64,000 nucleotides of DNA, from positions 30,256,001 to 30,320,000 of the forward strand of contig OZ024745.1 of NCBI GenBank assembly GCA_964016885.1, in the 5' to 3' direction. A model generated the notes under the pieces. That model was not told where the DNA came from, did no database searches, and worked only from the letters and a program-made list of their open reading frames with translations. Position numbers and translations under genes: made by a program. This stretch comes from Eledone cirrhosa. Its lineage: Eukaryota. This document shows positions 1 through 64,000 of this stretch, piece after piece; position 1 is the stretch's first letter; each line of letters opens with the position of its first letter.

Positions 1-56
1 ATATATATATATATATAAACACACATACACATATATGTAAATTATATTAAACATAC

Positions 57-104
57 CTTTTTCCTTTATCATCTCTTCTTTTATTGCAGCCACAGCTATG
101 GCTT
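57..104 (-). CDS. Microexon A1 (48 nt, phase 1-1), peptide EAIAVAAIKEEMIKEK
   Basis: Minus strand TTAATTTTTTTAACATCAG|AAGCCATAGC...GGAAAAAG|GTATGT; length multiple of 3; no stop; homologous to 19 other exons. Confidence 0.8.
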
Positions 105-1151
105 CTGATGTTAAAAAAATTAACACAATGTCTTACATATCATTTGAAACAACATAACACATTGACATTATATATTTCTACTACATTGTACCTGCTTTTT
201 GAAACTTATCAGTCATTTATTGCATATTTCACAGTAAGTATATTAACTATACTACTACTATATATATGAGTATATACATTGTATATATGGATTGAAAAAG
301 TAGCAGGAGAAATGAAATATTTGGAATGAATGAACAAAGAATGAAGTTTCCTCTTAAGCCACCCATGGGCAATGCAATTTCATGCCAAAAGTGTTACTTT
401 TAATATTGAGCCCAGATTGTATAACAGCTTAGAGAAAGCCATTGGAAAGATGTATATGAGACAATACAGTATAGAAAGAGAGGACAACATATACATATAT
501 CCTCTGTTATGTGGTAGTGCTGGTGCCATGAAAAATGACATCCAGTCAATCATGTAAAGTGTGAGTGCTAGTGTTATGACAAAAAACACTCAGTTCATTT
601 TGTAAAATCAAACAGTCGGAGTCATGATAAAATGCTACTGGTATACATCGTTAACTAGTTGATAGTAGGGAGGGCATCCAGCTTTAAAAACAATGTCAGA
701 TGGAACATATGAGCAAAATACAGGCATCTGATCTGCCTAACCAGCCTCAGTAGGTGGCAAGAAGTCTATCCCTTGCAAGCATAGAAAATAGACATAAAAT
801 GATAATGGTAATAATTGTTTCTACGTTTGGCACAAGGCCATCAATTATCCAGTGCATTACTGGTACTTTATTTTATCGACCTCGTAAGGATGAAAGGCAA
901 AGTCAACCTCGGCGGGATTTGAACTCAGATCGTAAAGGGACGTAACTATGCTGGAAAGCATGGCGTCCGACCCTCTACCGATACTGCCAATCCTCCGCCC
1001 TTATAATAATGGTAATAATGATGATAATGGTAATAATGATGAAGATATATATATATATATATATCATCATCATCATCATCATTTTACGTCCGTTGTTCTC
1101 TGCTTGCAAAATATATATATATATACATTATAAACATTATATTCAACATAC

Positions 1152-1202
1152 CATCTTCAGGTGTCAGCATTCCTTCTTTTTTCAAAGTAGCAATTAGGTT
1201 TT
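1152..1202 (-). CDS. Microexon B1 (51 nt), ENLIATLKKEGMLTPED
   Basis: CACATTAG|AAAACCTA...GAAGATG|GTATGT; phase 1-1, open. Confidence 0.8.
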
Positions 1203-1609
1203 CTAATGTGAAAGGAAAAAATTAACAGAATAGCTTACATTTCATTAGAAACAACATATTACATTGACTTTCCCCTCCTCATATTATATATATATATATA
1301 TATGTATAGTACCATAACTCCTGGTAGAGTTGTAAAGATGTTATAGTGACACAGCATATCTGGGGCATTTTGTTGGTTGAGCCCATCCCTTCTCTAAAGC
1401 TGAATATAACATATTCTCCCAGAGAAGAAGAGAAAGCACGAGAGAAAGGAAGTAAAAAAGAGTTATAGAGGAAGGATCATCTCCCTTGGCAAGATGAAAA
1501 GAAAAGTTGACTTCAGCAGGATTTGGACTCACTACTCATTTGAGTTGGAAGAAGAAATCCTGCTAAGCCTATCGAATGTTCCAACAACTGCCAATTTATG
1601 GCCTATGTT

Positions 1610-1670
<61 letters not shown>

Positions 1671-1868
1671 CATTATATTAATAAATGGAAACTATATTTC
1701 ATCATCATCATCATCATCATCATCGTTTAATGTCAACTTTCCACGCTAGCATGGGTTTAGATGGTAATTGTCCCACTTGAGGCAAGATTGATCGTCTCGC
1801 CTCGTATAGGACTGTCTGGCAGGTTTTCTACGGTTGGATGCCCTTGCTAACACCAACCACGTTTACTT

Positions 1869-1934
1869 TATTTTATTATATATATTTCAAGGGCAACCAA
1901 GGCAAATTATGGTGTGCTTTCATCAGATAAAATA
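1869..1934 (-). ncRNA. Minimal type I hammerhead ribozyme (PLE-type)
   Basis: TATTTTAT-CTGATGA-stem II-GAAA-TATATATA-ATAAAATA. Confidence 0.6.
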
Positions 1935-2022
1935 CACATTTGTTTTATATATAAATATTGACATATCAGTCATAAAAATGTTTAAGCTTGTTGAATCCCA
2001 ACAAATTAAATATAACCTCTGC

Positions 2023-2407
<385 letters not shown>

Positions 2408-2461
2408 TAAAAAAATAATGAATAAAACAATGAAACAGTTCCTTATATTAAACAAAAAAAG

Positions 2462-2615
2462 TTCATTATTTAACGATCGTTTCTGGGATATATATGTGTT
2501 AGAATTGGCATGTATATTTAACAGATCTATGTACAAAATTATACAAAATTATACAAACTATCAAAATTAAATATACATACCAACTCATATATATGCCGTC
2601 TTCAGAAATAATGAA
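2462..2615 (-). ncRNA. Type I hammerhead ribozyme with long stem II
   Basis: Inverted copy of 7747-7900. Confidence 0.75.
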
Positions 2616-3199
2616 ATAAATTTATTGATAATAACAACAATTCAAAATTACAGGTCTGTTTGGGAACAGAGTTCAAATTGACCAATGGAAACACAAAAAG
2701 TTTATACAGTTAGGTGTGTGTATATATGTAAGTAACTTCGTTCACAGATATGCATAAAAATATATGTTCACATGCATACGCATGCCGAAAAGATGTATGT
2801 AAATACAAAAATTCAGGGCTAATGTCTCTGTATGTTTATAATCTACAGATAAAATACATATACGCATATAAACACATAAATATAAAAATAAATATATACA
2901 AATTCATATACATACATTCACACACACACGCGCATATACGCATAAACATACACACAACCACGAACATACATACACACACACACTCACACACACATATATG
3001 TGTATATACTATTATCATAAGCATATGGACATTAATGCGCGCACATAAACACTGCCACACATATTTAGATCCAGATACAGAAAGTAGGTGGGGGGGGGGG
3101 GGAAGAGGTCAGTAATTACTGGTGTCAGCAAACTGCCTATTTATAAATGTATCTATAAATTTAGAAATAAAAGGAAAAAGAAAAAAGAAAAATATTAAG

Positions 3200-3254
<55 letters not shown>

Positions 3255-3280
3255 AAGTAAAATATAAAATATACATCGAT

Positions 3281-3361
<81 letters not shown>

Positions 3362-3499
3362 CATATACATACACATATACATAAACACATACATACACAT
3401 ACATATACATACACACACCATATATATACACATATACACACGCGCATACATATAGAGACACATACATATACACATATAAATACATAGACATATACATAT

Positions 3500-3538
<39 letters not shown>

Positions 3539-3675
3539 CATATATACATACATTCACAACACACGTATATATATATATATATAAAATATTAAAAAATATA
3601 TATTATATATATATATACACACATACATAAATACACTCATGCATATACACATATACACATACATACCCACACATA

Positions 3676-3707
<32 letters not shown>

Positions 3708-3708
3708 C

Positions 3709-3759
<51 letters not shown>

Positions 3760-4191
3760 CACACACACATGTACACATACACATATACACAAAGATATAT
3801 ATATATATACACACACGCATATTATAAATATATATATATATATACATATATACATATATATATATATATACACACATATATATACATACATACATATATA
3901 TACTCATACATAGACATACATATATACACACACACATACACACATACATATACGCATATATACACATACATACACATCCATGTATGCGTATACACATACA
4001 AACACAACCACATGCTCACACAACTCAGACATACATAAATAAAGGGATATACATACACATATATACATATATACATATATAAATAGAGATATATATACAC
4101 ATATAAATATATACACACATACACACACACACATATATACATACACATACATACATACATACATATACATACACACACACATATATACATA

Positions 4192-4223
<32 letters not shown>

Positions 4224-4304
4224 CATATATATAAAAATAAAGAAATAAAAAAATAAAAGAAATAAATAAATTAATTAATTAATACACCCAGTCAGACAAA
4301 TATG

Positions 4305-4352
<48 letters not shown>

Positions 4353-4426
4353 TATATATACATATATATATATATATATACATACATATACATACATATA
4401 TATATATACACATACACACATCAACT

Positions 4427-4463
<37 letters not shown>

Positions 4464-4466
4464 TAT

Positions 4467-4553
4467 ATGTAGGTAGATATGTATGTTTGGGTGTTTGTAT
4501 GTGAGTATAAAAATACATATGTGCGCATGTAAATAAGGGTGTATGATTGTATG

Positions 4554-4604
<51 letters not shown>

Positions 4605-4865
4605 CTATGTATTTATGTGGGCATATGTGTGTATGTATATGTATGCGCATGTATACGTCTATGTGTATATGTGTGTATGTGTATATATGTACGTATATGT
4701 GCATGTATATGTGAGTGTGTGTATATATATATATATATATACACACACTCACATATACATGCACATATACGTACATATATACACATACACACATATACAC
4801 ATAGACGTATACATGCGCATACATATACATACACACATATGCCCACATAAATACATAGATACATA

Positions 4866-4905
<40 letters not shown>

Positions 4906-4993
4906 CATACAATCATACACCCTTATTTACATGCGCACATATGTATTTTTATACTCACATACAAACACCCAAACATACATATCTACCTACATA
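4467..4993. repeat. ~520-bp near-perfect palindrome centred on (TA)n at ~4733
   Basis: GTAGGTAGATATGTATGTTTGGG... / ...CCCAAACATACATATCTACCTAC. Confidence 0.85.
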
Positions 4994-5564
4994 TACATAC
5001 ATACATCCACGCTTACAAATACAAATAATAATAGGGGGGGGGGATTATAGTAAATATAGGTCTCAAGAAACATAGAATATTAATCAGCATTTAGATCATA
5101 ATATGTGTTTACATAGTAGTTTCAGTATTAGGAAATGTAAGAAAGAAGGCAAAATTATGCATTTTAATATAAGTAGACTATTAATTATAGGTTAACTAAA
5201 TTAAAGATAGTTAATATATTGATTTCTAAGGTGTATACTACTTAGGTTTATAATATTTGAAGCGGAATTTTGAAGTTAAATAGTAGTAGAGTATTAATTA
5301 TAGTATAACTAAATCAAAATTATTAACGTTATGGTATCAATATTAGGAAATGAATTTAGTAATAGGGAAAAAAACCAAATAAAGTATTACATCGGTAGTA
5401 GAATATAAATTATAGGTTAACTAAATTAAAAATTATATATTAATTTCTATAGTATATGTTAATTAGGTTTATAATAATTAAAACAGATATTGTATTTTAT
5501 CTATAGTAGAATATAATTATAGGTAAACAAAAATTAAAATTAATATATACACACATATATATTC

Positions 5565-5627
<63 letters not shown>

Positions 5628-6587
5628 CATATATATATACATATTTTTTCAGAAATTGCAAAGAATATATTAACTAGGTATACATCTAAAACCTATCTCA
5701 GTCTATGATTACATGACACTCTGCAATCCATCTGTATTAGGATTTTAATTTTAAGCCAACTAAATTAAATTTTTAGGTTAACCAAATTAAAACCAAATTA
5801 TAAATATATTTCTAAATTGTACATTAATTAGGTCTATAATATTAAAAAATATTTCTCTGTCATTGAATACACGATATTTTGTTATATTTTATCTGTAAAG
5901 GAATTTTAATAAAAGGTTAAATAAATTAAAATTAATCTATAAATTAATTTACAAAGTATATATTAGTAATATTTAAAAGTTTTTCACAATTTATGATTAC
6001 ACAATATTTTATAATCTCATCTGTAGTAGAATTTTAATTAAATTAAATTTATAGGTTAACTAACATTTAAATTAAATTATATATTAATATCTAAAATAAT
6101 GTTATTAATTAGGTTTATAATATTTAAATGTTTTTCTTAGTTTATGATTACACGATATAATTAATTCCTGTCGTTTATTTAATAGGATATCCTTAGATTT
6201 CATTATTTCAAATAGTTCTTGGGAACATAATCTACATTCATTTCTATTATTTTGATAAGGGGTGGCTCTTTTGAGCACACTCCAGGTCATATCATATTCT
6301 ATATTCTTATTTTTATAACTATTGATTTTTTCTGCTAGAGATGTTGTATTAGCCAGTGCAGCATTTTTAAAACTATGTTTGTGGGTATTAAACCTTACCT
6401 TAAAATTGTTAGAAGTAGCTCCTATATATGAGCAAATAGAATCTTTAGTTTTAACATTACATTTATAAACTATGTTGTTAACAAGACAATTTCCTTTTAA
6501 TGGGCAGTTTGCTTTGTTTCTACAGTTACAACCTTTCGTATATATATATATATCTTTGTGTATATGTGTATGTGTACATGTGTGTGT

Positions 6588-6651
<64 letters not shown>

Positions 6652-6652
6652 G

Positions 6653-6722
<70 letters not shown>

Positions 6723-6764
6723 GGTATGTATGTGTATATGTGTATATGCATGAGTGTATTTATG

Positions 6765-6809
<45 letters not shown>

Positions 6810-6828
6810 TGTGAATGTATGTATATAT

Positions 6829-6868
<40 letters not shown>

Positions 6869-7039
6869 ATATATATATATGTCTATGTATTTATATGTGT
6901 ATATGTATGTGTCTCTATATGTATGCGCGTGTGTATATGTGTATGTGTATATATATGGTGTGTGTATGTGTATATATATGGTGTGTGTATGTATATGTAT
7001 GTGTATGTATGTGTTTATGTATATGTGTATGTATATGCA

Positions 7040-7090
<51 letters not shown>

Positions 7091-7116
7091 ATCGATGTAT
7101 ATTTTATATTTTACTT

Positions 7117-7153
<37 letters not shown>

Positions 7154-7746
7154 CTTAATATTTTTCTTTTTTCTTTTTCTTTTTATTTCTAAATTTATAG
7201 ATACATTTATAAATAGGCAGTTTTCTGACACCAGTAAATACTGACCTCTTCCCCCCCCCCACCTACTTTCTGTATCTGGATCTAAATATGTGTGGCAGTG
7301 TTTATGTGCGCGCATTAATGTCCATATGCTTATGATAATAGTATATACACATATATGTGTGTTTGAGTGTGTGTGTGTATGTATGTTCGTGGTTGTGTGT
7401 ATGTTTATGCGTATATGCGCGTGTGTGTGTGAATGTATGTATATGTGTGAGTATATGAATGTGTATATATTTATTTTTATATTTATGTGTTTATATGCGT
7501 ATATGTATTTTATCTGTAGATTATAAACATACAGAGACATTAGCCCTGAATCTTTGTATTTACATACATCTTTTCGGCATGCGTATGCATGTGAACATAT
7601 ACTTTTATGCATATCTGTGAACGAAGTTACTTACATATATACACACACCTAACTGTATAAACTTTTTGTGTTTCCATTGGTCAATTTGAACTCTGTTCCC
7701 AAACAGACCTGTAATTTTGAATTGTTGTTATTATCAATAAATATAT

Positions 7747-7900
7747 TTCATTATTTCTGAAGACGGCATATATATGAGTTGGTATGTATATTTAATTTTG
7801 ATAGTTTGTATAATTTTGTATAATTTTGTACATAGATCTGTTAAATATACATGCCAATTCTAACACATATATATCCCAGAAACGATCGTTAAATAATGAA
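7747..7900 (+). ncRNA. Type I hammerhead ribozyme with long stem II
   Basis: 10-bp stem I TTCATTATTT/AAATAATGAA, CTGAAGA, ~115-nt stem II hairpin, GAAA-CGATCG-TT (palindromic stem III, GUU site). Confidence 0.75.
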
Positions 7901-8099
7901 CTTTTTTTGTTTAATATAAGGAACTGTTTCATTGTTTTATTCATTATTTTTTTAATATTTTATCTTGACTCTGTATTCCGTTTATCTTTCACCGAAAGTG
8001 ATTTTTCATTGCATCTCTTCTTTCCATGATATCCGGATTACATTGAGTTCTTCATACGGATTGGACACTACCGTAAACTCTTGGTAGATTTATCTACAT

Positions 8100-8134
<35 letters not shown>

Positions 8135-8139
8135 GTATA

Positions 8140-9795
<1,656 letters not shown>

Positions 9796-9825
9796 ATATA
9801 TATATATATATATACATATATATAT

Positions 9826-10205
9826 ACAATTACACCTCTCAAAGGCGATGACACATGACTGTGACCTCTGGCGTCACGCAGTAATATAGAAGACCCGACA
9901 CCCCACGGGTACAAGCCGAAGCTGAGGCATATAGACAATATGCCCCCACACCCTCCCATGGCAAAAAAGCATCCAGCCCACACTGTAAAGTGGACGTGTA
10001 GGCACCATGGAAAAAAGTATCCAGCAATCACTGTAAATGAGATTGGTGTTAGGAAGGGCATCCCGCTGTAGAAATGAAGTGAGAATCAGTTCCCATATGA
10101 GCAAGACAAGCTCAACCGACTGGACACTGCCCACAACAGGACAACCTGTCTAACCCATGCTAGCATGGAAGAACGGACGTAAAACGGTGATGATGATGAT
10201 GATGA
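9826..10205 (+). mobile_element. RTE 3' end fragment (paralogs at 27373-27745 and, partially, 60001-60129)
   Basis: Shared RTE 3' UTR core GGAAGGGCATCC and (GAT)n tail. Confidence 0.8.
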
Positions 10206-10820
10206 TATATATATATATATATATATATGGAAAACCTTGGATTGGAAGACTCAGGAAAACCTGGGATTAATTTATAAAAGCTGACCATGCCCAATTGCAC
10301 CTCTCAAAGACGATGACATTGGACCAAGACCTCTGGTGTTATTCCGGTGGATGGCTAATAGTAATATACGTAAACAGCAAAGTATAAACAAACAGAGAGA
10401 AACTAAGCATAGGAATTAGTTGCAGAGTGCAGGAGAGGAGATTGTGTTAGTATGGGCATGTGATGTGTATGAAGGATGACAGGTGTATAAAAAGGTGCAG
10501 AGTGCTCAAAGTCAATGAAAGACTTAGAGCAGGGAGACCGAGGAAGACTTGGGATGAGGTGATACAAGCTGACCTTCCCTAATTGCACCTCTTAAAGATG
10601 ACACAGGAGCAACATAATAGTCGTTATGCAATAATACAGACGACCCCCCTTCCCACAGACTGAAGCTGAAGTATATATATAGTATGAATATAGAGAGAAT
10701 ATTTTTTGTGTCTATCTTGTTTGTACTCCCATAAAGAGAGTTTTTCTCAATTATAATATGATATATATATATATATATACGATATTAAACAAATGGAAAC
10801 TATATTTATAAAACCATATT

Positions 10821-10886
10821 TATTTCATTATACATATTTCAGGGATACCATATTAAAAATATGGCATGCCTTCTTCAGATAAAATA
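10821..10886 (-). ncRNA. Minimal hammerhead ribozyme
   Basis: Inverted copy of 11038-11103. Confidence 0.7.
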
Positions 10887-11037
10887 CAATATATAAACAG
10901 TTTTATAAATAATTTTGATGTACCATAAATATTGAGCAGCCGTTATGTAAGAAGCCGGTTTGGTACCGGCTTCTTACATAACGGTTGCTCAATATTTATG
11001 GTACGTCAAAATTATTTATAAAACTGTTTATATATTG

Positions 11038-11103
11038 TATTTTATCTGAAGAAGGCATGCCATATTTTTAATATGGTATCCCTGAAATATGTATAATGAA
11101 ATA
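11038..11103 (+). ncRNA. Minimal hammerhead ribozyme
   Basis: TATTTTAT-CTGAAGA-AGGCATGCCATATT/AATATGGTATCCCT-GAAA-TATGTATA-ATGAAATA. Confidence 0.7.
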
Positions 11104-11233
11104 AATATGGTTTTATAAATATAGTTTCCATTTGTTTAATATTGTATATCTACCCCAAAACTTGTCGAGTGCTTTATATCAGTTATAAAATATTTACTTG
11201 TTGTAACCCAACAATTTTAAATAAAACTTTTGC

Positions 11234-11266
<33 letters not shown>

Positions 11267-11458
11267 GTTTCTGAATTTGTTTAGCAGGATTCTTTATCTG
11301 AAAACGTGTGTTGAAACTGGTATTGTTATTCTTTGGGAGGGTCATGTGGCCAATAAGAAACACATGCACCAGTTGCTTTCACTTCAATTTATTATAATAA
11401 ATTTAGGAATTTATAAATTTCCAGTTGGTTGGTTCCAAACCAGATGTTTTTATATATT

Positions 11459-11501
11459 GTCAAAGTTCTTTCGTCACACATTCTGTGACCTCTTCAGTGA
11501 C
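11459..11501 (-). ncRNA. Candidate minimal hammerhead ribozyme
   Basis: GTCA-CTGAAGA-GGTCAC..GTGAC-GAAA-GAACTT-TGAC. Confidence 0.5.
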
Positions 11502-12968
11502 TGGGGATTATTTTCTTTGTTTTTGTGCCTCTCCTTTGTTCTGTCCTATGCCATCTTGTTTTGTAACCAACCAACCAACCAACCGAAAATTTTTAAATTC
11601 CTAAATTTATAAATTTATTATAATAAATTGAAGTGAAAGCAACTGGTGCGTGTGTTTCTTATTGGCAACCTGACCCTCCCAAATTATAACTATATATATA
11701 TATATATATATATAAATATATATATATATATTTTACAGGAACGATCGACTTTCGTCAAATCGGACCGAGGGAACAATGTTTCCGTTGGTCTTTCCAATTG
11801 CTAATACTATCTATCGGTCGCAACTCCAGGTAGAAGGAGCAACGTGAAATAAAGTGTCTTGCTCAAGGACATAATGCATCGCCTGGTCCAGGAATCGAAC
11901 TCACAACCTTACGATTGCGAATCATATATATATATATATATTATATTATATATATATATACATATATTTATATATGTAATTATTATTGGTGGATTGCCAG
12001 TATCGGTAGAGGGTCGGACACCATGTTTTGCAGAATTGAGTTACGGTCCTTTGCCGTCTGGGTTCAAATCCCGCCGAGGTTAACTTTGCCTTTCATCCTT
12101 ACGGGGTCGATAAAATAAAGTACCAGTAATGTACTGGGTAATTAATGACCTTGTGCCAAAAGTAGAAACAATTATTATCATTGTTATTAAAGACATGTTT
12201 CTTAAGAGTTAGAGAGTTGAATTCACAATTGTGAGTATGATATGTTGTGTTCTTGGGTGAAATATTTTAATTCATGTTGCTCCAGTTCACTCATTTGTAG
12301 AAATTAGTTGCAATGTCACTAGTGCCAACATGTATTGGCCTTTGCCTTTCTCTTGGACAACATTGGTGGAATGGAGAGGGGAGACTTATATGCATGGGCA
12401 ATTGTTTGTCTTCCATATAAACACCATACCCAGGATGGGTCCTTGGAGGAGAAGTTTCTAGGTACAAATCCTATAGTCATTCATGATAGAAGGGGCTCTT
12501 TACCCTTTTTATATATCTATGTATGCATATAGTAAATTTCACAAGAAAAGTAGGAAATATGCAGGATGAATGTCTTCCTCTCCAGCCATCGCCTGGGCAA
12601 TGCAATTTCGTACCAAAGGTTGGTATTGCATAATATTGAGATATATAGGTTGCACTGCATATGAGACAACACAACATAGACAAAGAGGAGAACATAAATA
12701 TATATGTATATATAAACCACAATTGAATATATAATTGTCCCTCATTAGACAATAGTGATCTGTAGATAGTTACACACATCTGTAAACAAACCTATATATT
12801 TACAACCACACATAAACACTACAAGTGAAAAGGAAAAATATCATAACCTGAAGGAAACCTCTACAAACCTTTTCCTTTCTTTCTCCCCTTCCCTTTTTTT
12901 CCTTGAAACCCTGCAGAAACCAATTCTTTAGGGCAAACTTTTCTCCCCTCACCACAAGGATTCCTTTC

Positions 12969-12969
<1 letters not shown>

Positions 12970-13000
<31 letters not shown>

Positions 13001-13760
13001 ACGTTTAACGTCCGTGTTCCACGCTTGCATGGGTTTGGACGGGGGTTTTCCCACTTGAGGCAAGAATGATTGTCTTGCTCGCATAAGACTGTCTGGCGGG
13101 TTTTCTACAGCTGGATGCCCTTCCTAACACCAACCACATTTACAGTGTGGGGCTGGGAGGTTTTTACCGTGTTGCCTACATGGCCACATTACAGCGTGGA
13201 CTGTCTGGCAGGTTTTCTACAGCTGGATGCCCTTCCTAACACCAACCACATTTACAGTGTGGGGCTGGGAGGTTTTTACCGTGTTGCCTACACGGCCACA
13301 TTACTGCGTGGACTGTGTGTTTTTTTGTCATGACACCTACACGATCTCATTTGTTTCGACCTGGATCTTGTGGCACCAAGATAACTTTACATTGAAGGGG
13401 CGGTGTGGATGGGGTGGGGTGGTGGGACGGGGGTGTATTTTGTTAGAGATGCCTACTGGCTGTAGTAGGTTTTACTTTGTATTTAGGTAAGGCGGGTCTT
13501 CTCTATTATTGAGTACCGCCAAAGGTCTCGGTCCAATGACATTGTCTTGGAGAGGTGTAAGTGTGTGAGGTCAGAATTTATCAGCTCGTCCCAGCTTTTT
13601 CTGGGTCTGCCTACTCCGTAGCTACCGTCTATCTTTATTGCCCTGCACTTTGTTATACAGCTGTCGTCTTTCATGCGCATCACGTGACCATACCAACGTA
13701 GCCTTCTCTCGAGTAAACAACATCTGATCCCTCTTATTTCTAATTTTTTCCTTAGTTCGC
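12970..13760 (-). mobile_element. RTE 3' fragment, unit-1 specific
   Basis: [15 protein letters not shown]...GRPRKSW; absent at the paralogous site ~30498. Confidence 0.85.
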
Positions 13761-14514
13761 ATATGCTTGTTTATACATATTTATATTTTAGTTCCTTTCT
13801 TTCTTTTCTTGCCTTTATCTACAAACCCTAAAAACATACATGATAGAAACCTACATACATACACAGGTACACACCACAAGACAAAAGAAAAGCTGTTTAT
13901 CCCCTCTTAGATATTTTTAGTTATTTTTACAAATCCTGAAAATAACATGACTTTTTGACACATTAAACCCCACCTAAATGCACACTCACACTCACACTCA
14001 CACATTAGAGAACAAAGAATTACCATCTAGACCATTTTTATGAATAGAAAAGGAATTTTCTATTTAAACCAAGAGAATTTTCTAGTGAATCAATTGGATC
14101 CTGATCTGTGGAACCCCACTTCCTTGATCACAACTCCACTTTCACAAAGAACATTTATATATGAAATTTTGACAATAGATTCACATATGTTCCAACTGCC
14201 CACAAAATATGAGAACAAACCTTTTATTTATTTTATGACAAAATTGACATTTCAATCAAAACCAGTAATATTTGACAAAATTTAAATGTAAAAATTATAA
14301 AAATATTCATTTTGTCAGATTAAAATGTTAATGCTGGTACCATGATAAAAAAGCATTTGACTTTAAAAACAATGCCAGAATGGAATCTATGAGCAAAAAA
14401 CAGTCATCTGATCTTCTTAACCAGCCTGAGAAGGTGACAACTAACACATTTAAGTGTATAAAAATAGACATAAAATGATAATGATAATAATAAGGATATA
14501 TATATATAATATGG

Positions 14515-14549
<35 letters not shown>

Positions 14550-14574
14550 AATATATAAATTATATTAAACATAC

Positions 14575-14625
14575 CATCTTCAGGTGGCAGTTCTACTTTT
14601 TCCCTTGAAGCAGCAAGTTTTATTC
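14575..14625 (-). CDS. Microexon C1 (51 nt), GIKLAASREKVELPPED
   Basis: CCTTAG|GAATAAAA...GAAGATG|GTATGT; phase 1-1, open. Confidence 0.8.
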
Positions 14626-16556: not shown

Positions 16557-16607
16557 CTTCTTTATGTGTCAGCACTCCTTTCTTTTCCAAATGAGCAATT
16601 AGTTTTT
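16557..16607 (-). CDS. Microexon D1 (51 nt), EKLIAHLEKKGVLTHKE
   Basis: CTTTAG|AAAAACTA...AAAGAAG|GTATGT; phase 1-1, open. Confidence 0.8.
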
Positions 16608-17712: not shown

Positions 17713-17763
17713 CTTCTTCAGTTGGCGATAATCTTCCTACTTTTGCAGCAGCAAATAGTATTT
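17713..17763 (-). CDS. Microexon E1 (51 nt), EILFAAAKVGRLSPTEE
   Basis: CATTAG|AAATACTA...GAAGAAG|GTATGT; phase 1-1, open. Confidence 0.8.
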
Positions 17764-19112
17764 CTAATGAAAAAAAATAATGTCATATATATCATTTGAA
17801 ACAACATATTACATTGAGTTTCCCCCTCATTTTATTATATTATTGAGCTCAGAGTACAGAGAACTGGAATGAATACTGCAAAGCATTCTATTCAACATTC
17901 TAAAATCTCTGCCAATTTGACACCTATATAGGTATGTATATATATATATTTATACATATGATAAAGTTGTGTATATATATATATATTTATATATATACAT
18001 GATAAAGTTATATCTGTATAAATACTGTATTATACACCAACATATATAAATATATACACATATCTGATATGTACGCATGTAAACATGCCAGAAAATACAA
18101 ATTTCCAAATCTAATTGGACCCTCATCAAAAGGTGTGTTTACCATCCAATCAACAAGAAAACATGCATTTGATGGGTGTATATACTCACTTGCTGTTAGT
18201 ATTATTCAGAAATGGATGTTCGAATGAGCATATAATTAGCATTCATGTTGGTAATATATATATTAGGAAGTGTGTTAGCAGCGGAAGTGTACAATAAAGT
18301 TATATCTGCATAAATACAGTATGTAACTAAGACTGCATCAATATAATAACTCCTCCCCCCTCTCATTTTTATTTTTATTTTTATTTTGAGTTTTTATTTT
18401 TATTCTGTCTTTATTCTACTCTCCAAACTCTGTTATTGTTGATGAAGGGCAAATGCCCAACACGTTGACTGTTTCACTCTCTTTTAAGCATGAAACTAAT
18501 AAGACATAGTTAATGCATCCCTTTGTTTGTTTTTGTATTCTTGATACATATATATAGTTAATTAATCAAATTAATTTCAGAATGAGTTGTTAAATGTTTT
18601 GAGGACCTTCTAAGATGTCTTCATATGTCTTCCCTTTAATAACTATCAACCATGCGCACATGAAATCGGTTTCGGCATTCAAAGGTTGTCAATGTTAGCA
18701 GTCGCTACTAAAGCTTGGGATTGGTGTGATATGGCAGGGTCTGTGCACATCTGTAAGTGTTATTGTTAACCTTGGCAACCTTTGAATGACTGCGCCAATA
18801 TTGCATATGGGCACCTGATATGGAATTATTTGTTTGCTTATTTCAGTCAGTCTGACACTAGCAATACATGACCACATAAACTCCTCTCCAACGTTCCTTC
18901 CATCTCTATTAGTTACCTTATTAGGGGCTAATAAGGTAACATCATCACTGGTTTTCATTTCATTTTACATTTCTTTTTCTTATTTCCTCCCCTCCCCTCC
19001 TCTCAATTCCTCCTACTGCCACCTGATTTGGAAACATGGAGATTTACCCATCTGCATTGTAGAGGCTTCCAAATACTATTTTACTATTCCACAAAGATTC
19101 AAGCAAATTTAG

Positions 19113-19182
<70 letters not shown>

Positions 19183-19196
19183 TGTTTTAAACGTAC

Positions 19197-19247
19197 CTTC
19201 TTCAGCTGACAGCATTCCTTCTTTTTTTGCAGCCATAATTAGAATTT
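19197..19247 (-). CDS. Microexon F1 (51 nt), (K/E)ILIMAAKKEGMLSAEE
   Basis: CATTAG|AAATTCTA...GAAGAAG|GTACGT; phase 1-1, open. Confidence 0.8.
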
Positions 19248-19997
19248 CTAATGTTTAAAAGAAATTAACATAATGGCTTAAATATCGTTTGAAACCACAT
19301 ATCACATTGAGTTTTTCCCTCATTTTATTAATATATATGGATGCATGGATGTACGGTCTCATAATAATCTCATAGTGCCCTACAGCATTTCTTAAGCATT
19401 TTGTTTACAACTGGCAGAGCCCACCTTCTCTTCAGAATGAAATAAAGCCAATTTCTTCCAGAGTAAGAAAAGAGAGTGATAGAGAGGAAGTGAGAAAGAG
19501 ACATAGAGAAAATAGACACCAGTACTAAACTAATAGTAACTATAACTTTTGATTTGTATGGAACATTATCACCCCTTTTTTTTCACTACAGTATATATAC
19601 ATATATGCAGTCTGCACTGTAAAGTGGTTCTATAGGTGTTACGACAAAGAGCACCCAGTCCACACTGTAAAATTGTCATGTAGGTGTCATGAGAAAAATC
19701 ACCCAGTCCACACTGTAAATTTGGTTGGACTTAGGAAGGACATCCAGCCATAGAAATCAATACAAAATCAGTTCTATGTCATCTAAACATGGTCCTCCAG
19801 CCTGGATCTCTCACACTGGGTCAGCATGTCCTACTCTTGCTAGCATGACAATGATGATGATGATAATGATGATATAAACTATTATAAATAGTTTATCAAC
19901 ACAGTTGCTTGCTAACATATATAATAATATTTGGGTCTGTACATAACATAAACCTCTCGGTTTCCTTTGTCTATTCTATGGAAACTCGTGACACTGA

Positions 19998-20041
<44 letters not shown>

Positions 20042-20334
20042 ATTGGTAGAGCTGGTGCTATCCAGTTCTCAATGTAAAGAGAGAGAAATGGTGACATAAC
20101 AAAAAACACCCAGCTGATTCTGTAAGATGGTACTGCCAGAGTCATGATAAAATTCTCCCTGTACATGCCACAAACTGGATGACATTAAGAACGGCATTCA
20201 GCCATTGAAACCATGACAGAATGGAATGTATGAGAGTCATCTGACCTTTTTAACCAGCCTGAGAAGGTGACAACAGGTTTAACCCATGTAAGTATAGAAC
20301 AATAGACATAAAATTATAACAATAATAATGACGA

Positions 20335-20371
<37 letters not shown>

Positions 20372-20517
20372 AGTCTACATGTTAACACATATCTGAGGAG
20401 CTTCCAATTCCAGAGTGATGTTCTATAGTTAATCGATTGTTCTGTGAGCTGATCGACAGTGAAACATATGTAATATGTAATTAAATATGTGTATGATGCA
20501 ACACTGATTCTTTGTTC

Positions 20518-20564
<47 letters not shown>

Positions 20565-20566
<2 letters not shown>

Positions 20567-21452: not shown

Positions 21453-21500
21453 TTTCTTCTGGTGTTATCACTCCTGTTTTTATAGCAGCAAGTAGTACAT
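21453..21500 (-). CDS. Microexon G1 (48 nt), DVLLAAIKTGVITPEE
   Basis: CAACAG|ATGTACTA...GAAGAAA|GTATGT; the only exon ending in A rather than G; open. Confidence 0.75.
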
Positions 21501-22386: not shown

Positions 22387-22431
22387 CTTTTTTAGTTTCC
22401 AGCACTTCTGTTTTTGCAGCAGCAAGTATTT
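22387..22431 (-). CDS. Microexon H1 (45 nt), EILAAAKTEVLETKK
   Basis: CATCAG|AAATACTT...AAAAAAG|GTATGT; phase 1-1, open. Confidence 0.8.
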
Positions 22432-24341: not shown

Positions 24342-24392
24342 CCATTTCCTGTGTCCACACTCCTTCCTTTTTTGCAGCACGAAGTATTACAT
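24342..24392 (-). CDS. Microexon I1 (51 nt), DVILRAAKKEGVWTQEM
   Basis: CATTAG|ATGTAATA...GAAATGG|GTATGT; phase 1-1, open. Confidence 0.8.
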
Positions 24393-25999: not shown

Positions 26000-26047
26000 C
26001 TTTTTCCTTTATCATCTCTTCTTTTATTGCAGCCAAAACTATGACTT
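26000..26047 (-). CDS. Microexon A2 (48 nt), EVIVLAAIKEEMIKEK
   Basis: CATCAG|...|GTATGT; paralog of A1. Confidence 0.8.
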
Positions 26048-26850: not shown

Positions 26851-26901
26851 CATCTTCAGGTGTCAGCATTCCTTTTTTTTTCAAAGTAGCAATTAGGTTT
26901 T
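26851..26901 (-). CDS. Microexon B2 (51 nt), ENLIATLKKKGMLTPED
   Basis: CATTAG|...|GTATGT; paralog of B1. Confidence 0.8.
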
Positions 26902-31276: not shown

Positions 31277-31327
31277 CATCTTCAGGTGTCAGTTTTACTT
31301 TTTCTCTTGAAGTAACAAGTTTTATTC
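31277..31327 (-). CDS. Microexon C2 (51 nt), GIKLVTSREKVKLTPED
   Basis: CCTTAG|...|GTATGT; paralog of C1. Confidence 0.8.
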
Positions 31328-32954: not shown

Positions 32955-33005
32955 CTTCTTCACGTGTCAGCACTCCTTTCCTTTCAAAACCAGCAATTAG
33001 TTTTT
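32955..33005 (-). CDS. Microexon D2 (51 nt), EKLIAGFERKGVLTREE
   Basis: CTTTAG|...|GTATGT; paralog of D1. Confidence 0.8.
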
Positions 33006-34105: not shown

Positions 34106-34156
34106 CTTCTTCAGTTGGCAGTAATCTTCCTACTTTTGCAGCAGCAAATAGTACTT
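34106..34156 (-). CDS. Microexon E2 (51 nt), EVLFAAAKVGRLLPTEE
   Basis: AATTAG|...|GTATGT; paralog of E1. Confidence 0.8.
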
Positions 34157-35848: not shown

Positions 35849-35899
35849 CTTCTTCAGCTGACAGCATTCCTTTTTCTGTTGCAGCCATAATTAGAATTT
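35849..35899 (-). CDS. Microexon F2 (51 nt), EILIMAATEKGMLSAEE
   Basis: CATTAG|...|GTACGT; paralog of F1. Confidence 0.8.
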
Positions 35900-38182: not shown

Positions 38183-38230
38183 CTTCTTCTGGTGTTATCA
38201 CTCCTGTTTTTATAGCATCAAGTAGTACAT
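38183..38230 (-). CDS. Microexon G2 (48 nt), DVLLDAIKTGVITPEE
   Basis: CAACAG|...|GTATGT; paralog of G1. Confidence 0.8.
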
Positions 38231-39953: not shown

Positions 39954-39998
39954 CTTTTTTAGTTTCCAGCACTTTAGTTTTTGCAGCAGCAAGTATTT
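39954..39998 (-). CDS. Microexon H2 (45 nt), EILAAAKTKVLETKK
   Basis: CATCAG|...|GTATGT; paralog of H1. Confidence 0.8.
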
Positions 39999-48363: not shown

Positions 48364-48414
48364 CGTTTTCCTGTGTCCGTAATCTTTTCTTTTTTGCACC
48401 ACGAAGTATTATAT
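48364..48414 (-). CDS. Microexon I2 (51 nt), DIILRGAKKKRLRTQEN
   Basis: CATTAG|...|GTATGT; paralog of I1 (most diverged pair). Confidence 0.75.
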
Positions 48415-53633: not shown

Positions 53634-53681
53634 CTTTTTCCTTCATCATCTCTTCTTTTATTGCAGCCACAGCTATGACTT
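53634..53681 (-). CDS. Microexon A3 (48 nt), EVIAVAAIKEEMMKEK
   Basis: CATCAG|...|GTATGT; paralog of A1/A2. Confidence 0.8.
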
Positions 53682-54845: not shown

Positions 54846-54896
54846 CGTCTTCAGGTGGCAGCATTCCTTCTCTTTTCAAAGTAGCAATTTGATTTT
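54846..54896 (-). CDS. Microexon B3 (51 nt), ENQIATLKREGMLPPED
   Basis: CATTAG|...|GTATGT; paralog of B1/B2. Confidence 0.8.
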
Positions 54897-54933
54897 CTAA
54901 TGTTAAAGAAAAGAATTAGAAACAACATATTAA

Positions 54934-55278
54934 TGGAGGCACATGGCTTAGTGGTTAAAGCATTGGGCTTGCAATCGAAAGGTTGTGAGTTCAATTCTCA
55001 GACTGGGTGATGTGTTGTTTCCTTGAGCAAGACACTTTATTTCACATTGCTCCAGTTTACTCAGCTGTAGAACTGAGATGAGAGGGACTGAGGTCCCTAT
55101 CATTCCACTGCAGAGTGGTCATGGAGGTGCCACGGCAAAAAAGCACCCAGCACTCACTGTAAATAAGGTTGGTGTTAGGAAGGGCATCCAACTGTAGAAA
55201 TCAAGCCAGAATCAGTTCCCGTCCCACCCTTGCAAGCAGGGAAAAGCGGACGTAAAATGATGATGATGATGATGATGA
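54934..55278 (+). mobile_element. tRNA-headed SINE with RTE-derived 3' tail
   Basis: Box A TGGCTTAGTGG, box B GAGTTCAATTC, core GTTTCCTTGAGCAAGACACTTTA, 3' end shared with RTE plus (GAT)n. Confidence 0.8.
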
Positions 55279-55622
55279 TATTACATTGACTTTCCTCTCC
55301 TCATATTATATGTATATATATAGTACCATAACTCCTGGTAGAGTTGTAAAGATGTTATAGTGACACAGCATTTCTGGGGCATTTTGTTGGTAGAACCCAT
55401 CCCTTCTCTTGATCTGAATATAGCATATTCTCCCAGAGAAGGAGAGAGAACATGAGACAAAAGGAAGTAAAAAAGAGTTATAGAGGAAGGATCATTTCCC
55501 TTGGCAAGATGAAAAGAAAGTTGACCTCAGCAGGATTTGGACTCAGATCACATTTGATTTGGAAGAGGAAATCCTGCTAAGTCTATCGAATGTTCTAACA
55601 ACTGACAATTTGTGACCTATAT

Positions 55623-55660
<38 letters not shown>

Positions 55661-55661
55661 T

Positions 55662-59922
<4,261 letters not shown>

Positions 59923-60186
59923 TAGATATAGATATATATGTGTATCCATATATAGAAACCTTGTAGTGGGAGACCCAGGAAGACTTGGGATGAATTTATA
60001 AAATGAAGCCAGAATCAGTTCCTGTATGAGCAAGACAAGGTCAGCCGACTGGACACTACCCACAACAGGACAACCTGTCTAACCCATGCTAGCATGGAAA
60101 AACAGACGTAAAACGGTGATGATGATGATTATATATATATGTATATATATAATATAAGATCAAAAGATGGTTAAAGGAGTTCCATG

Positions 60187-60257
60187 TATTTTATTATGCT
60201 CATTTCAAAAACAAACATCATCATGCAATAATATTTGTGTTTTCATCAGATAAAACA
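60187..60257 (-). ncRNA. Minimal hammerhead ribozyme of the intact PLE
   Basis: TGTTTTAT-CTGATGA-stem II-GAAA-TGAGCATA-ATAAAATA, ~1 kb downstream of the ORF stop. Confidence 0.7.
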
Positions 60258-61283
60258 GGAGAACATGATATGAAGGCTAAAAAACACTTGTGGATAGTGC
60301 AGTTTTAAATCAACATATGAAAAGTGGTTTTAGATTGATGTGTGATATTGGGAAAAATATTTTATTTAGAGAGGGGGGGGTGGAAAGGATGAAAAAGGGG
60401 AGGAGATGAGAGGGAGAGATGGGTGATAGAGAGAAAGAGATAGTTTTTATAACTGAGAGGAGATATATTGTTTTACATAGAGAGGTTGAAAACCGTTGGA
60501 AGATAATGTATAAATTAAAAAAATTTGAAAATTAACGAAAGGAGGATATGTGCGAGGAAAAAATATTTTATTTAGGGAGGGGGGGGGGGGGGTGAAAAAA
60601 GGGGGAGGAGATGAGAGTGAAGGTGGAGAGGGAGAGATGGGTGATAGAGAGAAAGAGATAGTTTTTATAACTGAGAAAAAGATATATTGTTTTACATAGA
60701 GAGGTTGAGAACCGTTGGAAGATAATGTATAAATTAAAGGAATTTGAAAATTAACGAAGGGAATTTATGTATGAAGATAGAGAGAAGAAATAATAATTGT
60801 GGATGAATATTCTAACGTCAAAAAAAGGGTATGTTGATAAGTATTGTGGCAATTTCAAAATTAACGAAGAGAAAAATTATTAAGGTTTGTGTGTAGAAGG
60901 ATTTGAGAAAAATAATGTGAAGTTAAAGTTTGTATATTGAAGGAATTGATAATATATGCGAATAAAGAGTTAATATGTATTAAGAATGAGTTCGTTGATG
61001 GGGAGAAAAAAATAATAAATTAAGGATGAAATTGAGATTAAAAAGATTTATGATAGAGAGAAAAAATAATAATGATTGCGGATGAATATTCTAACGTCAA
61101 AAAAACAAATGTATATGTTATGAAGGATTTTACAAGGTGAAGATAGAATGAGGGTAATGAGTAAACAAGTATTATAGAGTGTATAATGCCCTTTAAAGTA
61201 AAGTGGGAAGATGGGTATATTTTAAAGAGGTGTATGTATATGTGCCTTTGAGAAAAGATTCTAAATTGATAAAGAATTGAATA

Positions 61284-63686
61284 TTAACTGTATACTTTGT
61301 GAAAAGTCCTATGGAATTTATGCAGGCAGATAGAAAATAAATCTGTACGTCTATTTATTATAGAATCTAGGTTAGAGATAATGGTAAATTTTTCATTTAG
61401 GCAGAGATTACAGATTTTAGATAGAGAGCTGTTCAAGTATGAGGATGCAGAAGAAACCTTCTTCCAAAAGATGGTATATTTAATGTTTTTGTCTTTTAAG
61501 GACCATATGAGTTCTGAGAGAGCAGTGTTGGTTCTTTTAAGTTTGTATTTGAAAGATGAATGATGATTATAGAGACGAGCTTTAAAAGAGGTGGAAGTGG
61601 AGCCAAAATAGGTGAAGGAATTGGTGCTAGTTATAATTTTACATTCATAAATTAAGTTTTTATCGAGACAATGGTTGTTGAGAGGACATTTATTTTTAAT
61701 GCGGCAGTTGCAATTAGAGAGATTATTAATGAGTGACCTAGTGTTATCTATAGAAGGAATTGGATTGGAGAAGTTGTTTGCGATAGGAATAATAGGAATA
61801 ATAGTTTCTTGATTTAGAGTTGGATTATGAACATTTAGCGAAGTTGTGTTTGACGTTGTATTTGGGTTTACAGAAGTTAGCCTAGGGTTTACAATGACGT
61901 CGGGAGTACTATTACTGTTATTATGAAATTCAATGTTGGAAGGAAGAGATTTAGTATTTAGTATTTTATTGTTGTGTTTAGAGATGATGTTGGAAATATT
62001 GGAGGATGTAGAATAAGAAAATTTGATGGTGTGTTTGTTAAATATTTTACTATAGATATGTGAGGGAGGGAAGCATTTATTTAAGGCACTAAAAAATAAT
62101 TTAGGAATATTGTTATTAATAGAGATGGAGGAAGGAGCATTATACCAGATTATGTTTTTGTATCTAGGTCTTTTATTAAAATTATTGGAATGATCATGAT
62201 TAATTATTCTACTGTAAGTTTTTCTAGAATTTGTTTCTTTACTATATTTGATTTTATCTGGATAGCCGGCTTTAGAAAGTGCGTTATTATAGTAATTGGC
62301 GTTAGCATCAAAGATGTTTTTATTAGAGGATATGTTAGATATTCTTTTTCCAATATTACTAACTATAGCATTCTTGATATTGGTAGGATGGTTAGATTTA
62401 AAGTTAACATAATTTAGGTTCTCATTGTTTTTATGGTAAGGGTAATATAGGCCAGTGTCAAGATTAAGAGATACATCCAAGAAATTAGCTAGTTTGATAC
62501 TATTATCAAATTCAATTTTTAGGTTATGTTGGTTAAAGAGATTACGTATATTGTTCTTAATAATATTAAGGTTAACTATATTGCAATTTAGGATAGTAAA
62601 GAGCCCATCGTCACGATAAATTCCACCGCGAAGTTGAGGAATTTTCCGACTCAAAGAGTTCAAAATGAAGATACCAATTAAATCAGTCAATTGGGATGAA
62701 TCGGATGCTCCCATTGTGATGTCGAAGTTGTTAGAGGTATCGGCTCTGGTCCAATATTCGTTGTTGAACTCTAGGATGGTTTTACGTGCGGTGAGGATGA
62801 TGTGAAGTTCATCTGTGGTGATGTCAGAATATTTAAGTGCGAAAGATAGAGCATTATTGAGAAGTGAAGGCGAAATGGAGGAATAGTAGCTGGCAATATC
62901 AAATTGAATAAATTTTAGTTTGTTTTTATTATCCAATTTGTTGAACCAGCCAATCACCTCAGAAGTACCAAACCATAAATTTAGGTTCAAAGAAGAGCAA
63001 TTAGAACTAACCTGTGGGATAATTCTATCCAAGATGGCTTTACTAACAACCCCCAGATCAGATTTAGAGGGGGCGATTAATCTAACAGGTAGTTCAGTGC
63101 GAAAATTGTTTTTGTGATCCTTGAGATTTATCCTCGGAGTTCTTGGGAGGAATGGTTCGGTCTTTTTTTCAATGCCAAGTTTTGACATAATCTCAGAGGC
63201 TTCAAGGTTTATGTATTCTAAATTTTCATGGTTGGTTTTACGATACTTTTTCCTAAGTTCCTTTAGGATAAGGTTGTTATAATTATCCTTGGAAATACCA
63301 TATAAGTTATTGGTTTTGTCAGAGTGGACTAAAACATTTTTTGAGGAATTTAGGTTAGAGATTGTGTTCTTGAGATTTAAAAGGTGCTCTTGTCCTTTGT
63401 AAGGGTATCTCTTGAATTTAAGATTTTTTATTATTTTAGTTAATTCTTCCTCGAATTGTACTAGATTTTTGTTGGAAGGAGGATTTCGTCTAGAATTAAA
63501 AAGATGATCGAGGAAGTTATGTTCTTTGGTATGGAAGTTCCCTTTTAGGCGCTGGTCATAGAAATAGGCTGTCCATCTAAGTCTTCTTACGAAGGAGTCA
63601 GTTTTTTCAATAAGAAGTTTGGTGAATTCAGATTTACCAGGTATAGGAATGTCTTTAGTTGAATTGGTTATGTTGTAATAATCCAT
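61284..63686 (-). CDS. Intact Penelope-like element (PLE) ORF, RT + GIY-YIG endonuclease, Naiad-type, ~800 aa from the ATG at 63686
   Basis: Motifs STKDIPIP, SDKTNN, FDIASYYSSI, ITMGASDSSQL, YRDDG, FLDVSL; linker CNCRIKNKC (CxCx5C); LIY...YFG...FKARLYNH endonuclease; uninterrupted frame ending TAA. Confidence 0.92.
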   Translation of the reverse strand: MDYYNITNSTKDIPIPGKSEFTKLLIEKTDSFVRRLRWTAYFYDQRLKGNFHTKEHNFLDHLFNSRRNPPSNKNLVQFEEELTKIIKNLKFKRYPYKGQEHLLNLKNTISNLNSSKNVLVHSDKTNNLYGISKDNYNNLILKELRKKYRKTNHENLEYINLEASEIMSKLGIEKKTEPFLPRTPRINLKDHKNNFRTELPVRLIAPSKSDLGVVSKAILDRIIPQVSSNCSSLNLNLWFGTSEVIGWFNKLDNKNKLKFIQFDIASYYSSISPSLLNNALSFALKYSDITTDELHIILTARKTILEFNNEYWTRADTSNNFDITMGASDSSQLTDLIGIFILNSLSRKIPQLRGGIYRDDGLFTILNCNIVNLNIIKNNIRNLFNQHNLKIEFDNSIKLANFLDVSLNLDTGLYYPYHKNNENLNYVNFKSNHPTNIKNAIVSNIGKRISNISSNKNIFDANANYYNNALSKAGYPDKIKYSKETNSRKTYSRIINHDHSNNFNKRPRYKNIIWYNAPSSISINNNIPKLFFSALNKCFPPSHIYSKIFNKHTIKFSYSTSSNISNIISKHNNKILNTKSLPSNIEFHNNSNSTPDVIVNPRLTSVNPNTTSNTTSLNVHNPTLNQETIIPIIPIANNFSNPIPSIDNTRSLINNLSNCNCRIKNKCPLNNHCLDKNLIYECKIITSTNSFTYFGSTSTSFKARLYNHHSSFKYKLKRTNTALSELIWSLKDKNIKYTIFWKKVSSASSYLNSSLSKICNLCLNEKFTIISNLDSIINRRTDLFSICLHKFHRTFHKVYS

Positions 63687-64000
63687 GTTGTAGAAGAAGA
63701 GGTGAAGGACCATCAAAAGGTATCCAATATGAGAGTAAGCGCTCAACCGTTAAGGAGCAAGTTAATGTAGGAGGTGAGTTTTATTGTAGTACAATAAAGC
63801 AATGCAGATATCGGATAAGAAGCACTCTACAGTTTATATATATATATGGAAAACTTGGATTGGGAGACCCAGGAAAACCTGGGATTAATTTATAAAAGCT
63901 GACCATGCCCAATTGCACCTCTCAAAGACGATGACATTGGACCAAGACCTCTGGTGTTATTCCGGTGGATGGCTAATAGTAATGTACATAAACAGCAAAG

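Follow-up and report, generated by a model that had tools for sequence, protein, structure and literature searches.

Do very short exon-like segments that recur in a fixed order in the genome of Eledone cirrhosa encode part of one protein, and how did such a series arise? The question is raised by a 64,000-nucleotide (nt) stretch of contig OZ024745.1 (C5:30,256,001–30,320,000 of the 3.0-Gb genome), referred to here as the window. The features described below point to a real, lineage-specific super-repeat in which nine types of micro-exon recur 18 times within a giant octopod gene, and these exons are likely to be coding.

Layout and extent of the array

A sequence-only reading of the window had described 20 exons of nine types, A to I, with lengths of 48, 51, 51, 51, 51, 51, 48, 45 and 51 nt (447 nt per set). 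An acceptor–exon–donor scan of the minus strand recovered all of them in the same succession, and the two A-to-A spacings of 25,943 and 27,634 base pairs (bp) were matched exactly. The exons had been placed in plus-strand order; however, they lie on the minus strand, so the reading order is reversed and the array begins at D and finishes at E. The exons anticipated past both window edges are also present, with a C exon at window-equivalent 66,775–66,825, 2.8 kilobases (kb) beyond the end, and an I exon at window-equivalent position –1,454. Each window exon reads as YAG / 45–51 nt / GTATGT in phase 1-1 and codes for a peptide of the type E-I-L-x-A-A-K-K-E-G-M-L-T-x-E-E.

When 864 kb were searched with a profile built from the window exons, 175 matches were obtained. 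They resolved into 171 exon calls, 169 of them within the array; two of these 169 were broken, incomplete copies, one containing stops and the other lacking a donor, and were excluded. The resulting array consists of 167 micro-exons spread over 475 kb of the minus strand, from C5:30,518,794 to 30,043,598. It opens at its 5' end with five lone monomers, after which come exactly 18 complete units of the order D-C-B-A-I-H-G-F-E, covering 430 kb, with all 162 slots occupied and none out of order. Every one of the 167 exons is bounded by AG and GT, has a length that is a multiple of 3 and is phase 1-1, and the donor is GTATGT or GTACGT in 164. The length variants are an H exon of 48 nt in 6 of the 18 units and a single E exon of 48 nt, giving unit lengths of 447–450 nt. 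When the 167 exons were spliced in silico, a frame of 2,769 amino acids (aa) without any stop was obtained; the other two frames contain 330 and 173 stops (counted on the 169-exon version of the array). Class F has 18 close copies genome-wide, all in this array, as judged from the 40 scored of 87 candidates, all of which fall here. The assembly has no N gap within the 18 units and one 200-N gap among the lone monomers.

The period of 26–28 kb proposed for the super-repeat holds inside the window, but across the array D-to-D units range from 16.4 to 38.0 kb. The 1.7-kb difference between the two A-to-A spacings had been attributed to unit-specific transposons; retroelement pieces are indeed involved, but so is a microsatellite, and the difference is the net of several large opposing gaps (8.2 kb in each unit). 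Unit 9 lies entirely inside the window (17713–33005), flanked by parts of units 8 and 10, and units 9 and 10 are the closest whole-unit pair in the array (4.5% intron divergence). Its features are as follows.

57..104, minus strand: class A micro-exon of unit 10 (48 nt, phase 1-1)
105..180, minus strand: example of the intron block of about 75 nt that lies upstream of the acceptor in all 167 monomers
552..815: example of a second ancestral intron block, carrying both motifs quoted in the sequence-only reading
1152..1202, minus strand: class B micro-exon of unit 10 (51 nt)
1203..14574: 13.4-kb C-to-B intron of unit 10, 32% microsatellite plus dispersed repeats
8030..9412, plus strand: reverse transcriptase (RT) open reading frame (ORF; RVT_1) inside that intron
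14575..14625, minus strand: class C micro-exon of unit 10 (51 nt)
16557..16607, minus strand: class D micro-exon, first of unit 10 (51 nt)
17713..17763, minus strand: class E micro-exon, last of unit 9 (51 nt)
19197..19247, minus strand: class F micro-exon of unit 9 (51 nt, GTACGT donor)
21453..21500, minus strand: class G micro-exon of unit 9 (48 nt)
22387..22431, minus strand: class H micro-exon of unit 9 (45 nt)
24342..24392, minus strand: class I micro-exon of unit 9 (51 nt)
26000..26047, minus strand: class A micro-exon of unit 9
26851..26901, minus strand: class B micro-exon of unit 9
31277..31327, minus strand: class C micro-exon of unit 9
32955..33005, minus strand: class D micro-exon, first of unit 9
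34106..34156, minus strand: class E micro-exon, last of unit 8
35849..35899, minus strand: class F micro-exon of unit 8
38183..38230, minus strand: class G micro-exon of unit 8
39954..39998, minus strand: class H micro-exon of unit 8
48364..48414, minus strand: class I micro-exon of unit 8
53634..53681, minus strand: class A micro-exon of unit 8
54846..54896, minus strand: class B micro-exon of unit 8
54897..64000: part of the 11.9-kb C-to-B intron of unit 8, including two retroelement-like inserts specific to this unit

Both inserts in the last intron are found in unit 8 only. One (~55900–59800) is a C-rich, broken RT-like element facing opposite to the other, which carries an intact-looking 821-aa ORF of retroelement type (61284–63749, minus strand) with no Pfam match; by eye, this ORF looks Penelope-like.

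Growth of the super-repeat and selection on its exons

The two-tier duplication proposed from the window alone is supported by the class clades, by blocks common to the monomers and by the five lone monomers at the 5' edge. Phylogeny of exons with their flanks returned the nine clades that had been expected, each with 18 members and a bootstrap of 100, while the lone monomers were placed between clades, one of them as sister to D. An acceptor/exon block of ~130 nt is common to 167/167 monomers, and the second ancestral intron block lies mainly ahead of A, B, F, H and I exons (five classes). Introns of different classes do share ancestral blocks, as had been claimed, but the 26-mer quoted in evidence has a single exact occurrence in the window, rising to 6 when ≤2 mismatches are allowed; the quoted 15-mer has 6 exact copies. 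Both motifs are array-specific, with counts inside the array (476 kb) versus outside it (588 kb) of 69 versus 3 and 54 versus 2. Exon p-distance is 0.33 between classes and 0.114 within them, and the upstream intron block diverges by 0.19 between classes.

Among the 18 units, introns diverge by 7.1% on average with a minimum of 4.5%, and short tracts differ by ~1%. Fitting separate trees to the classes improved the log-likelihood (lnL) by 970.7, compared with 414.8 ± 27.9 (maximum 453.8) in 40 column shuffles, and the nearest-neighbour unit switches from class to class. The discordant class trees indicate that the units are recombination mosaics, for which we infer in-register unequal crossover and gene conversion as the cause. 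There is no near-identical whole-unit pair, so present-day variation in copy number is no more than possible. A 7% intron divergence among units, set against 36–73% protein identity to the homologue described below, suggests that the 18-fold expansion is young. The trees and shared blocks show that one exon-plus-intron monomer gave rise to nine diverged types, and that the nine-exon block was then copied in register until there were 18. Transposons and microsatellites later altered intron lengths unit by unit. Broken partial monomers were also found at C5:30,088,944; 30,184,154; 30,114,987; and 30,478,458, each an acceptor block without a full exon or an exon end only, and these are traces of out-of-register or transposon-linked micro-duplication.

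Frame and splicing are under selection. At intron rates, 14.5–29.8 changes to the AG/GT dinucleotides and 6.1–12.1 stop-creating changes would be expected among the exons, and none of either was observed; exon length changes are all of 3 nt, whereas introns are rich in indels. Since the array has no empty slot, the intact AG/GT boundaries are not an artefact of having demanded AG/GT. Two apparent stops arose because single changes had been scored relative to the consensus codon; the exons themselves contain none.

The residue sequence itself is neutral to mildly accelerated. Exon p-distance (0.114) exceeds intron p-distance (0.071), and of the 153 pairwise unit comparisons, which are not mutually independent, 148 have the exons as the more divergent part. 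Codon positions 1 and 2 change at 1.33 times (1.13–1.53) and position 3 at 1.09 times (0.84–1.35) the base-matched intron rate, counts that recombination is able to inflate. Codon models placed the peak of omega at 1.0–1.25; omega = 0.5 was worse by 13–24 lnL, and omega = 1 was not rejected. Positive selection on residues is thus suggested, but a pairwise pN/pS of 1.53 was rejected as proof of it because the tree-based omega is compatible with 1. Exons outpacing introns have a precedent in primate duplications (PMC3906575).

Host gene and predicted protein

A 1,220-nt exon (406 aa) lies 15 kb downstream of the array. A phmmer search with this exon against 1.84 billion representatives gave only two matches, both octopod: an O. 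bimaculoides protein of 1,681 aa (in a cluster with UniRef A0A0L8H5Y7 / XP_014775115, source name 'CCDC173-like') and Argonauta hians GAB1604762. A0A0L8H5Y7 is colinear with the minus strand at C5:30,741,575–30,704,525, upstream of the array, and at 30,028,159–30,019,239, downstream of it, so that the array falls within a single gene spanning 722 kb or more. Both proteins are likely orthologues of the host gene, to judge from their colinearity at both ends (36–73% identity). Neither record contains the 17-aa repeat, and a ~380-aa E/K-rich stretch stands in its place, although the homologue annotations are possibly incomplete.

The last homologue-anchored 5' exon and the big 3' exon have matching phases, the one ending and the other starting in phase 1. 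A chain assembled by hand begins with a giant 3,118-nt exon and two anchored exons; two micro-exons then lead into the array, which is followed by three more micro-exons, the big exon and five small exons. This chain has canonical sites, its phases agree, and it is open for 4,518 aa from the giant exon to the stop. The predicted gene has ~187 exons, two unique ones of which were tested and are single-copy in the genome. Its predicted protein of ~4,800 aa would begin with a helical, HEAT-like part and continue through a 1,040-aa E/K-rich exon and the array (~58% of the whole) to a charged C-terminal part.

The spliced repeat consists of modules of 15–17 aa and is rich in E, K, A and L; its 2,769 residues include 1 Cys and 5 Tyr. 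Over the 51-nt exons, the position profile runs from hydrophobic residues at 2–4 through A-A-K-K, with K/R at 8, to G at 11 (56%) followed by two hydrophobics, then T/S/P at 14, E at 16 and E/D at 17. By helix-capping rules, this motif is presumably a 13–14-residue helix with an N-cap box and a Gly C-cap, and the exon junction would fall inside the helix. We consider it probable that the array exons are spliced in series, giving a spacer of ~2,770 residues made of predicted helix-turn modules. Such a lineage-specific helical spacer, in which length and frame matter more than sequence, is the likely product of the locus. The array would set length as a spacer or scaffold between the helical N-terminal and the charged C-terminal parts, in place of the homologue's E/K-rich linker of ~380 aa, and the charge pattern and helix caps would weigh more than the exact sequence. 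That this role is a structural one in sperm or in the cytoskeleton is a guess based on look-alikes.

Several points weigh against this spacer reading. All splices of array exons are predictions, and the helix-turn interpretation is drawn from motifs. With omega = 1 not rejected, no amino-acid constraint is demonstrated. The array may be optional, given that the chain stays open (1,748 aa) when it is skipped and that no such repeat is present in the homologue; a 17-aa monomer profile scored –2.4 bits at best against A0A0L8H5Y7, compared with medians of 2.4–7.6 for held-out monomers. Pfam gave no significant match in A0A0L8H5Y7 or in the flanking host exons scanned, and a PDB sequence search gave 0 matches for the host protein. 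An AlphaFold 2 single-sequence model of A0A0L8H5Y7 1–313 reached a predicted local distance difference test (pLDDT) score of 42.6, Foldseek found nothing with it at E ≤ 0.001 (its rows were mostly HEAT/ARM), and ESM Atlas scores for host parts were all under 0.9. The HEAT-like signals for the N-terminal part come from this pLDDT-43 model and from sub-threshold Foldseek and Atlas rows, and are weak.

The exons might instead act as cassettes that generate diversity, included as variable subsets in the style of schistosome micro-exon genes (MEGs) or one out of many in the style of Dscam. All are symmetric, phase 1-1, so any subset stays in frame; the gene is open even with every array exon skipped; the excess of exon over intron divergence fits a diversity generator; and MEGs create variation from such exons (PMC4350168). 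We think this possible but unlikely, as seldom-used exons should decay, yet 0 of 162 did, and the donors are uniform (164/167). In Dscam-type clusters, selector sequences pair with a docking site. A search of the opposite strand over 1.06 Mb yielded no complementary docking site, the best reverse-complement match to the common upstream block having E = 12, although short or imperfect sites would escape such a search. A nebulin-like ruler, whose 149/150-aa unit would fit a periodic partner (a filament or axonemal repeat) with order and number under selection, seems to us improbable. It would account for exactly 18 whole units, for a unit length kept at 447–450 nt and for the lack of any out-of-register loss or gain among 162 exons despite common mosaic exchange. 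This register is, however, explicable by recombination preferring 93%-identical in-register over ~80%-identical out-of-register partners. The motifs SDxxYK and WLKG are absent, an omega of ~1 leaves no conserved binding residues, and the array is lineage-specific and absent from the homologue's record.

An omega near 1, splicing known from prediction, a host gene open without the array and a true 90-kb minisatellite in a neighbouring intron would all suit a satellite-like segmental duplication in an intron, non-coding, with the exon-like cores as relics. Such decay should have left 6–12 stops and 15–30 broken AG/GT sites where there are none, and exon length changes are all multiples of 3 while the introns are full of indels, which makes this reading very improbable. 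It is hardly credible that haplotypes or collapsed repeats were wrongly joined in assembly: the last five 3' exons are doubled nearby at 98.6–99.4% identity and a 200-N gap lies among the lone monomers, but the 18 units contain no gap, average 7.1% apart in introns (minimum 4.5%) and each have their own insertions. A wider claim than the spacer of predicted helix-turn modules would be that the 9-exon × 18 super-repeat is register-locked and lineage-specific, that diversifying selection acts on its residues but leaves order, frame and splicing unchanged, that it serves as a molecular ruler or recognition array of recent origin (in sperm, for instance), and that it is one case of a genome-wide octopod habit of enlarging proteins through micro-exon-plus-intron amplification, missed by standard annotation. 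We put this forward as speculation that is rather unlikely to hold in full.

Within the host gene, repeats have been expanded in two ways, inside one exon and through exon arrays. The giant 3.1-kb exon (L080:1006-4239, minus strand) carries ~30 copies of a 20-aa E/K intra-exon repeat of the EAEMLDRLKAEGKMLDKEGV type; AbiEi_4 and CM_2 scores on this exon were repeat artefacts, with 0 passing stretches. The introns hold a minisatellite with a 60-bp unit (64 bp in a variant) that extends over ~90 kb upstream of the array (C5:30,542,000–30,632,000), a 6.3-kb unit present three times at ~99% identity (C5:30,660,512–30,678,357) and, immediately 3' of the array, a retrotransposon with direct long terminal repeats (L058:2560-6770). 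A tandem duplication of ~19–21 kb at 98.6–99.4% identity includes the last five host exons (C5:30,005,837–30,026,870 versus 29,987,168–30,005,918), which may represent an alternative 3' end or an assembly duplicate. The upstream neighbour, a single open frame, is a UDP-glucose pyrophosphorylase (Pfam UDPGP; L090:528-2093, minus strand), and the downstream neighbour a multi-domain adenylate kinase (L044:9054-9359 and L045:2096-2362, plus strand).

WDR87/WDR97-like proteins have N-terminal WD40 propellers followed by a helical region and an E/K-rich tail. This identity for the host was a hunch that found no support: no WD40 match was present in 8 hand-picked upstream ORFs (of 265 candidates) or in A0A0L8H5Y7. 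The protein searches found no non-cephalopod homologue of the host, and a length-limited, weak homologue search with the 406-aa exon, A0A0L8H5Y7 25–310 and giant exon 1–330 gave no match. Among the papers listed by literature searches, none concerned the host gene or octopus exon super-repeats; an annotation held in supplements would fall outside this scope.

The locus preserves an unusually clean record of the birth of a super-repeat protein, with lone monomers, nine types, 18 copies ~93% alike in introns and a homologue without the repeat. In nebulin and titin, the super-repeats are generally considered too ancient for intron sequence to retain such a history. The array offers a test case for two questions: is register selected, or does it simply follow from recombination, and do array exons truly outpace their introns? 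It also means that ~2,770 aa of likely coding sequence are concealed in apparent repeat DNA.

Comparison with known systems

The sequence-only reading had called the array nebulin/titin-like, a likeness that holds for architecture only. Titin and twitchin have super-repeats of Ig and Fn3 domains plus a kinase; no Ig, Fn3 or kinase match was found in the homologue or in the scanned flanking exons, and the unit here is built of 17-aa motifs. The PEVK segment of titin is ~70% P, E, V and K, and an elastic segment of that type was rejected for the array, in which these residues make up only 40.4% (Pro 2.5%). Nebulin has 30–35-aa modules with SDxxYK, the motif WLKGIGW once per 7-module super-repeat, and 183 exons (PMC4126377). 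Both are giant many-exon genes (183 exons versus ~187) with simple helical modules, predicted ones here, in ordered super-repeats. Here, however, modules of 15–17 aa are grouped in 9-mers rather than modules of 30–35 aa in 7-mers, and the array is young, evolves at a near-neutral rate and has neither SDxxYK nor WLKGIGW (SDxxYK and WLKG: 0 in 2,769 aa). An omega of ~1 argues against a conserved partner-binding motif of the nebulin kind.

NBPF genes carry Olduvai (DUF1220) 3-mer higher-order repeats, of which NBPF20 has 19 copies (PMC9584774). The array is likewise a higher-order repeat, in that copies of the block are closer (0.114) than monomers within a block (0.33), and in both cases intragenic exon–intron monomers have expanded in a lineage-specific way. 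NBPF has a 3-mer with two exons per ~1.6-kb monomer and copies ~1.6% apart, whereas the present array is a 9-mer of single 45–51-nt exons in a single-copy gene, with units of 16–38 kb that are ~7% apart and hold unit-specific transposons. The likeness is architectural, and sequence kinship is not suggested; for the Olduvai domain, Pfam gave no match in the homologue or the flanking exons.

The schistosome SmPoMuc genes, a multigene family of mucin composition, contain a 27-bp exon type in a ~1-kb repeat with up to 20 copies (PMC2576457). As in SmPoMuc and the MEGs (PMC2576457, PMC4350168), a micro-exon with its flanking intron has been tandemly amplified, the exons are symmetric, gene conversion occurs (probably so here), and introns are more similar than exons; some MEGs also have dN/dS near or above 1. 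MEGs consist mostly of tiny symmetric coding exons, and the 167 exons of 45–51 nt here make up ~58% of the predicted protein. Unlike SmPoMuc, the array has nine types and 167 exons over 475 kb, is E/K/A/L-rich and is single copy. In Argiope MaSp2, ensemble repeats are delimited by iterated introns (PMC9779670); hierarchical coding repeats, repeated homogenised introns and a lineage origin are common to both, but here the micro-exons lie in kb-size, transposon-laden introns and the composition is not silk-like. The architecture therefore has precedents in NBPF, SmPoMuc, MaSp2 and nebulin, and is set apart from all of them by its period of nine types of single micro-exon, repeated in 18 perfect units over 430 kb of a single-copy gene.

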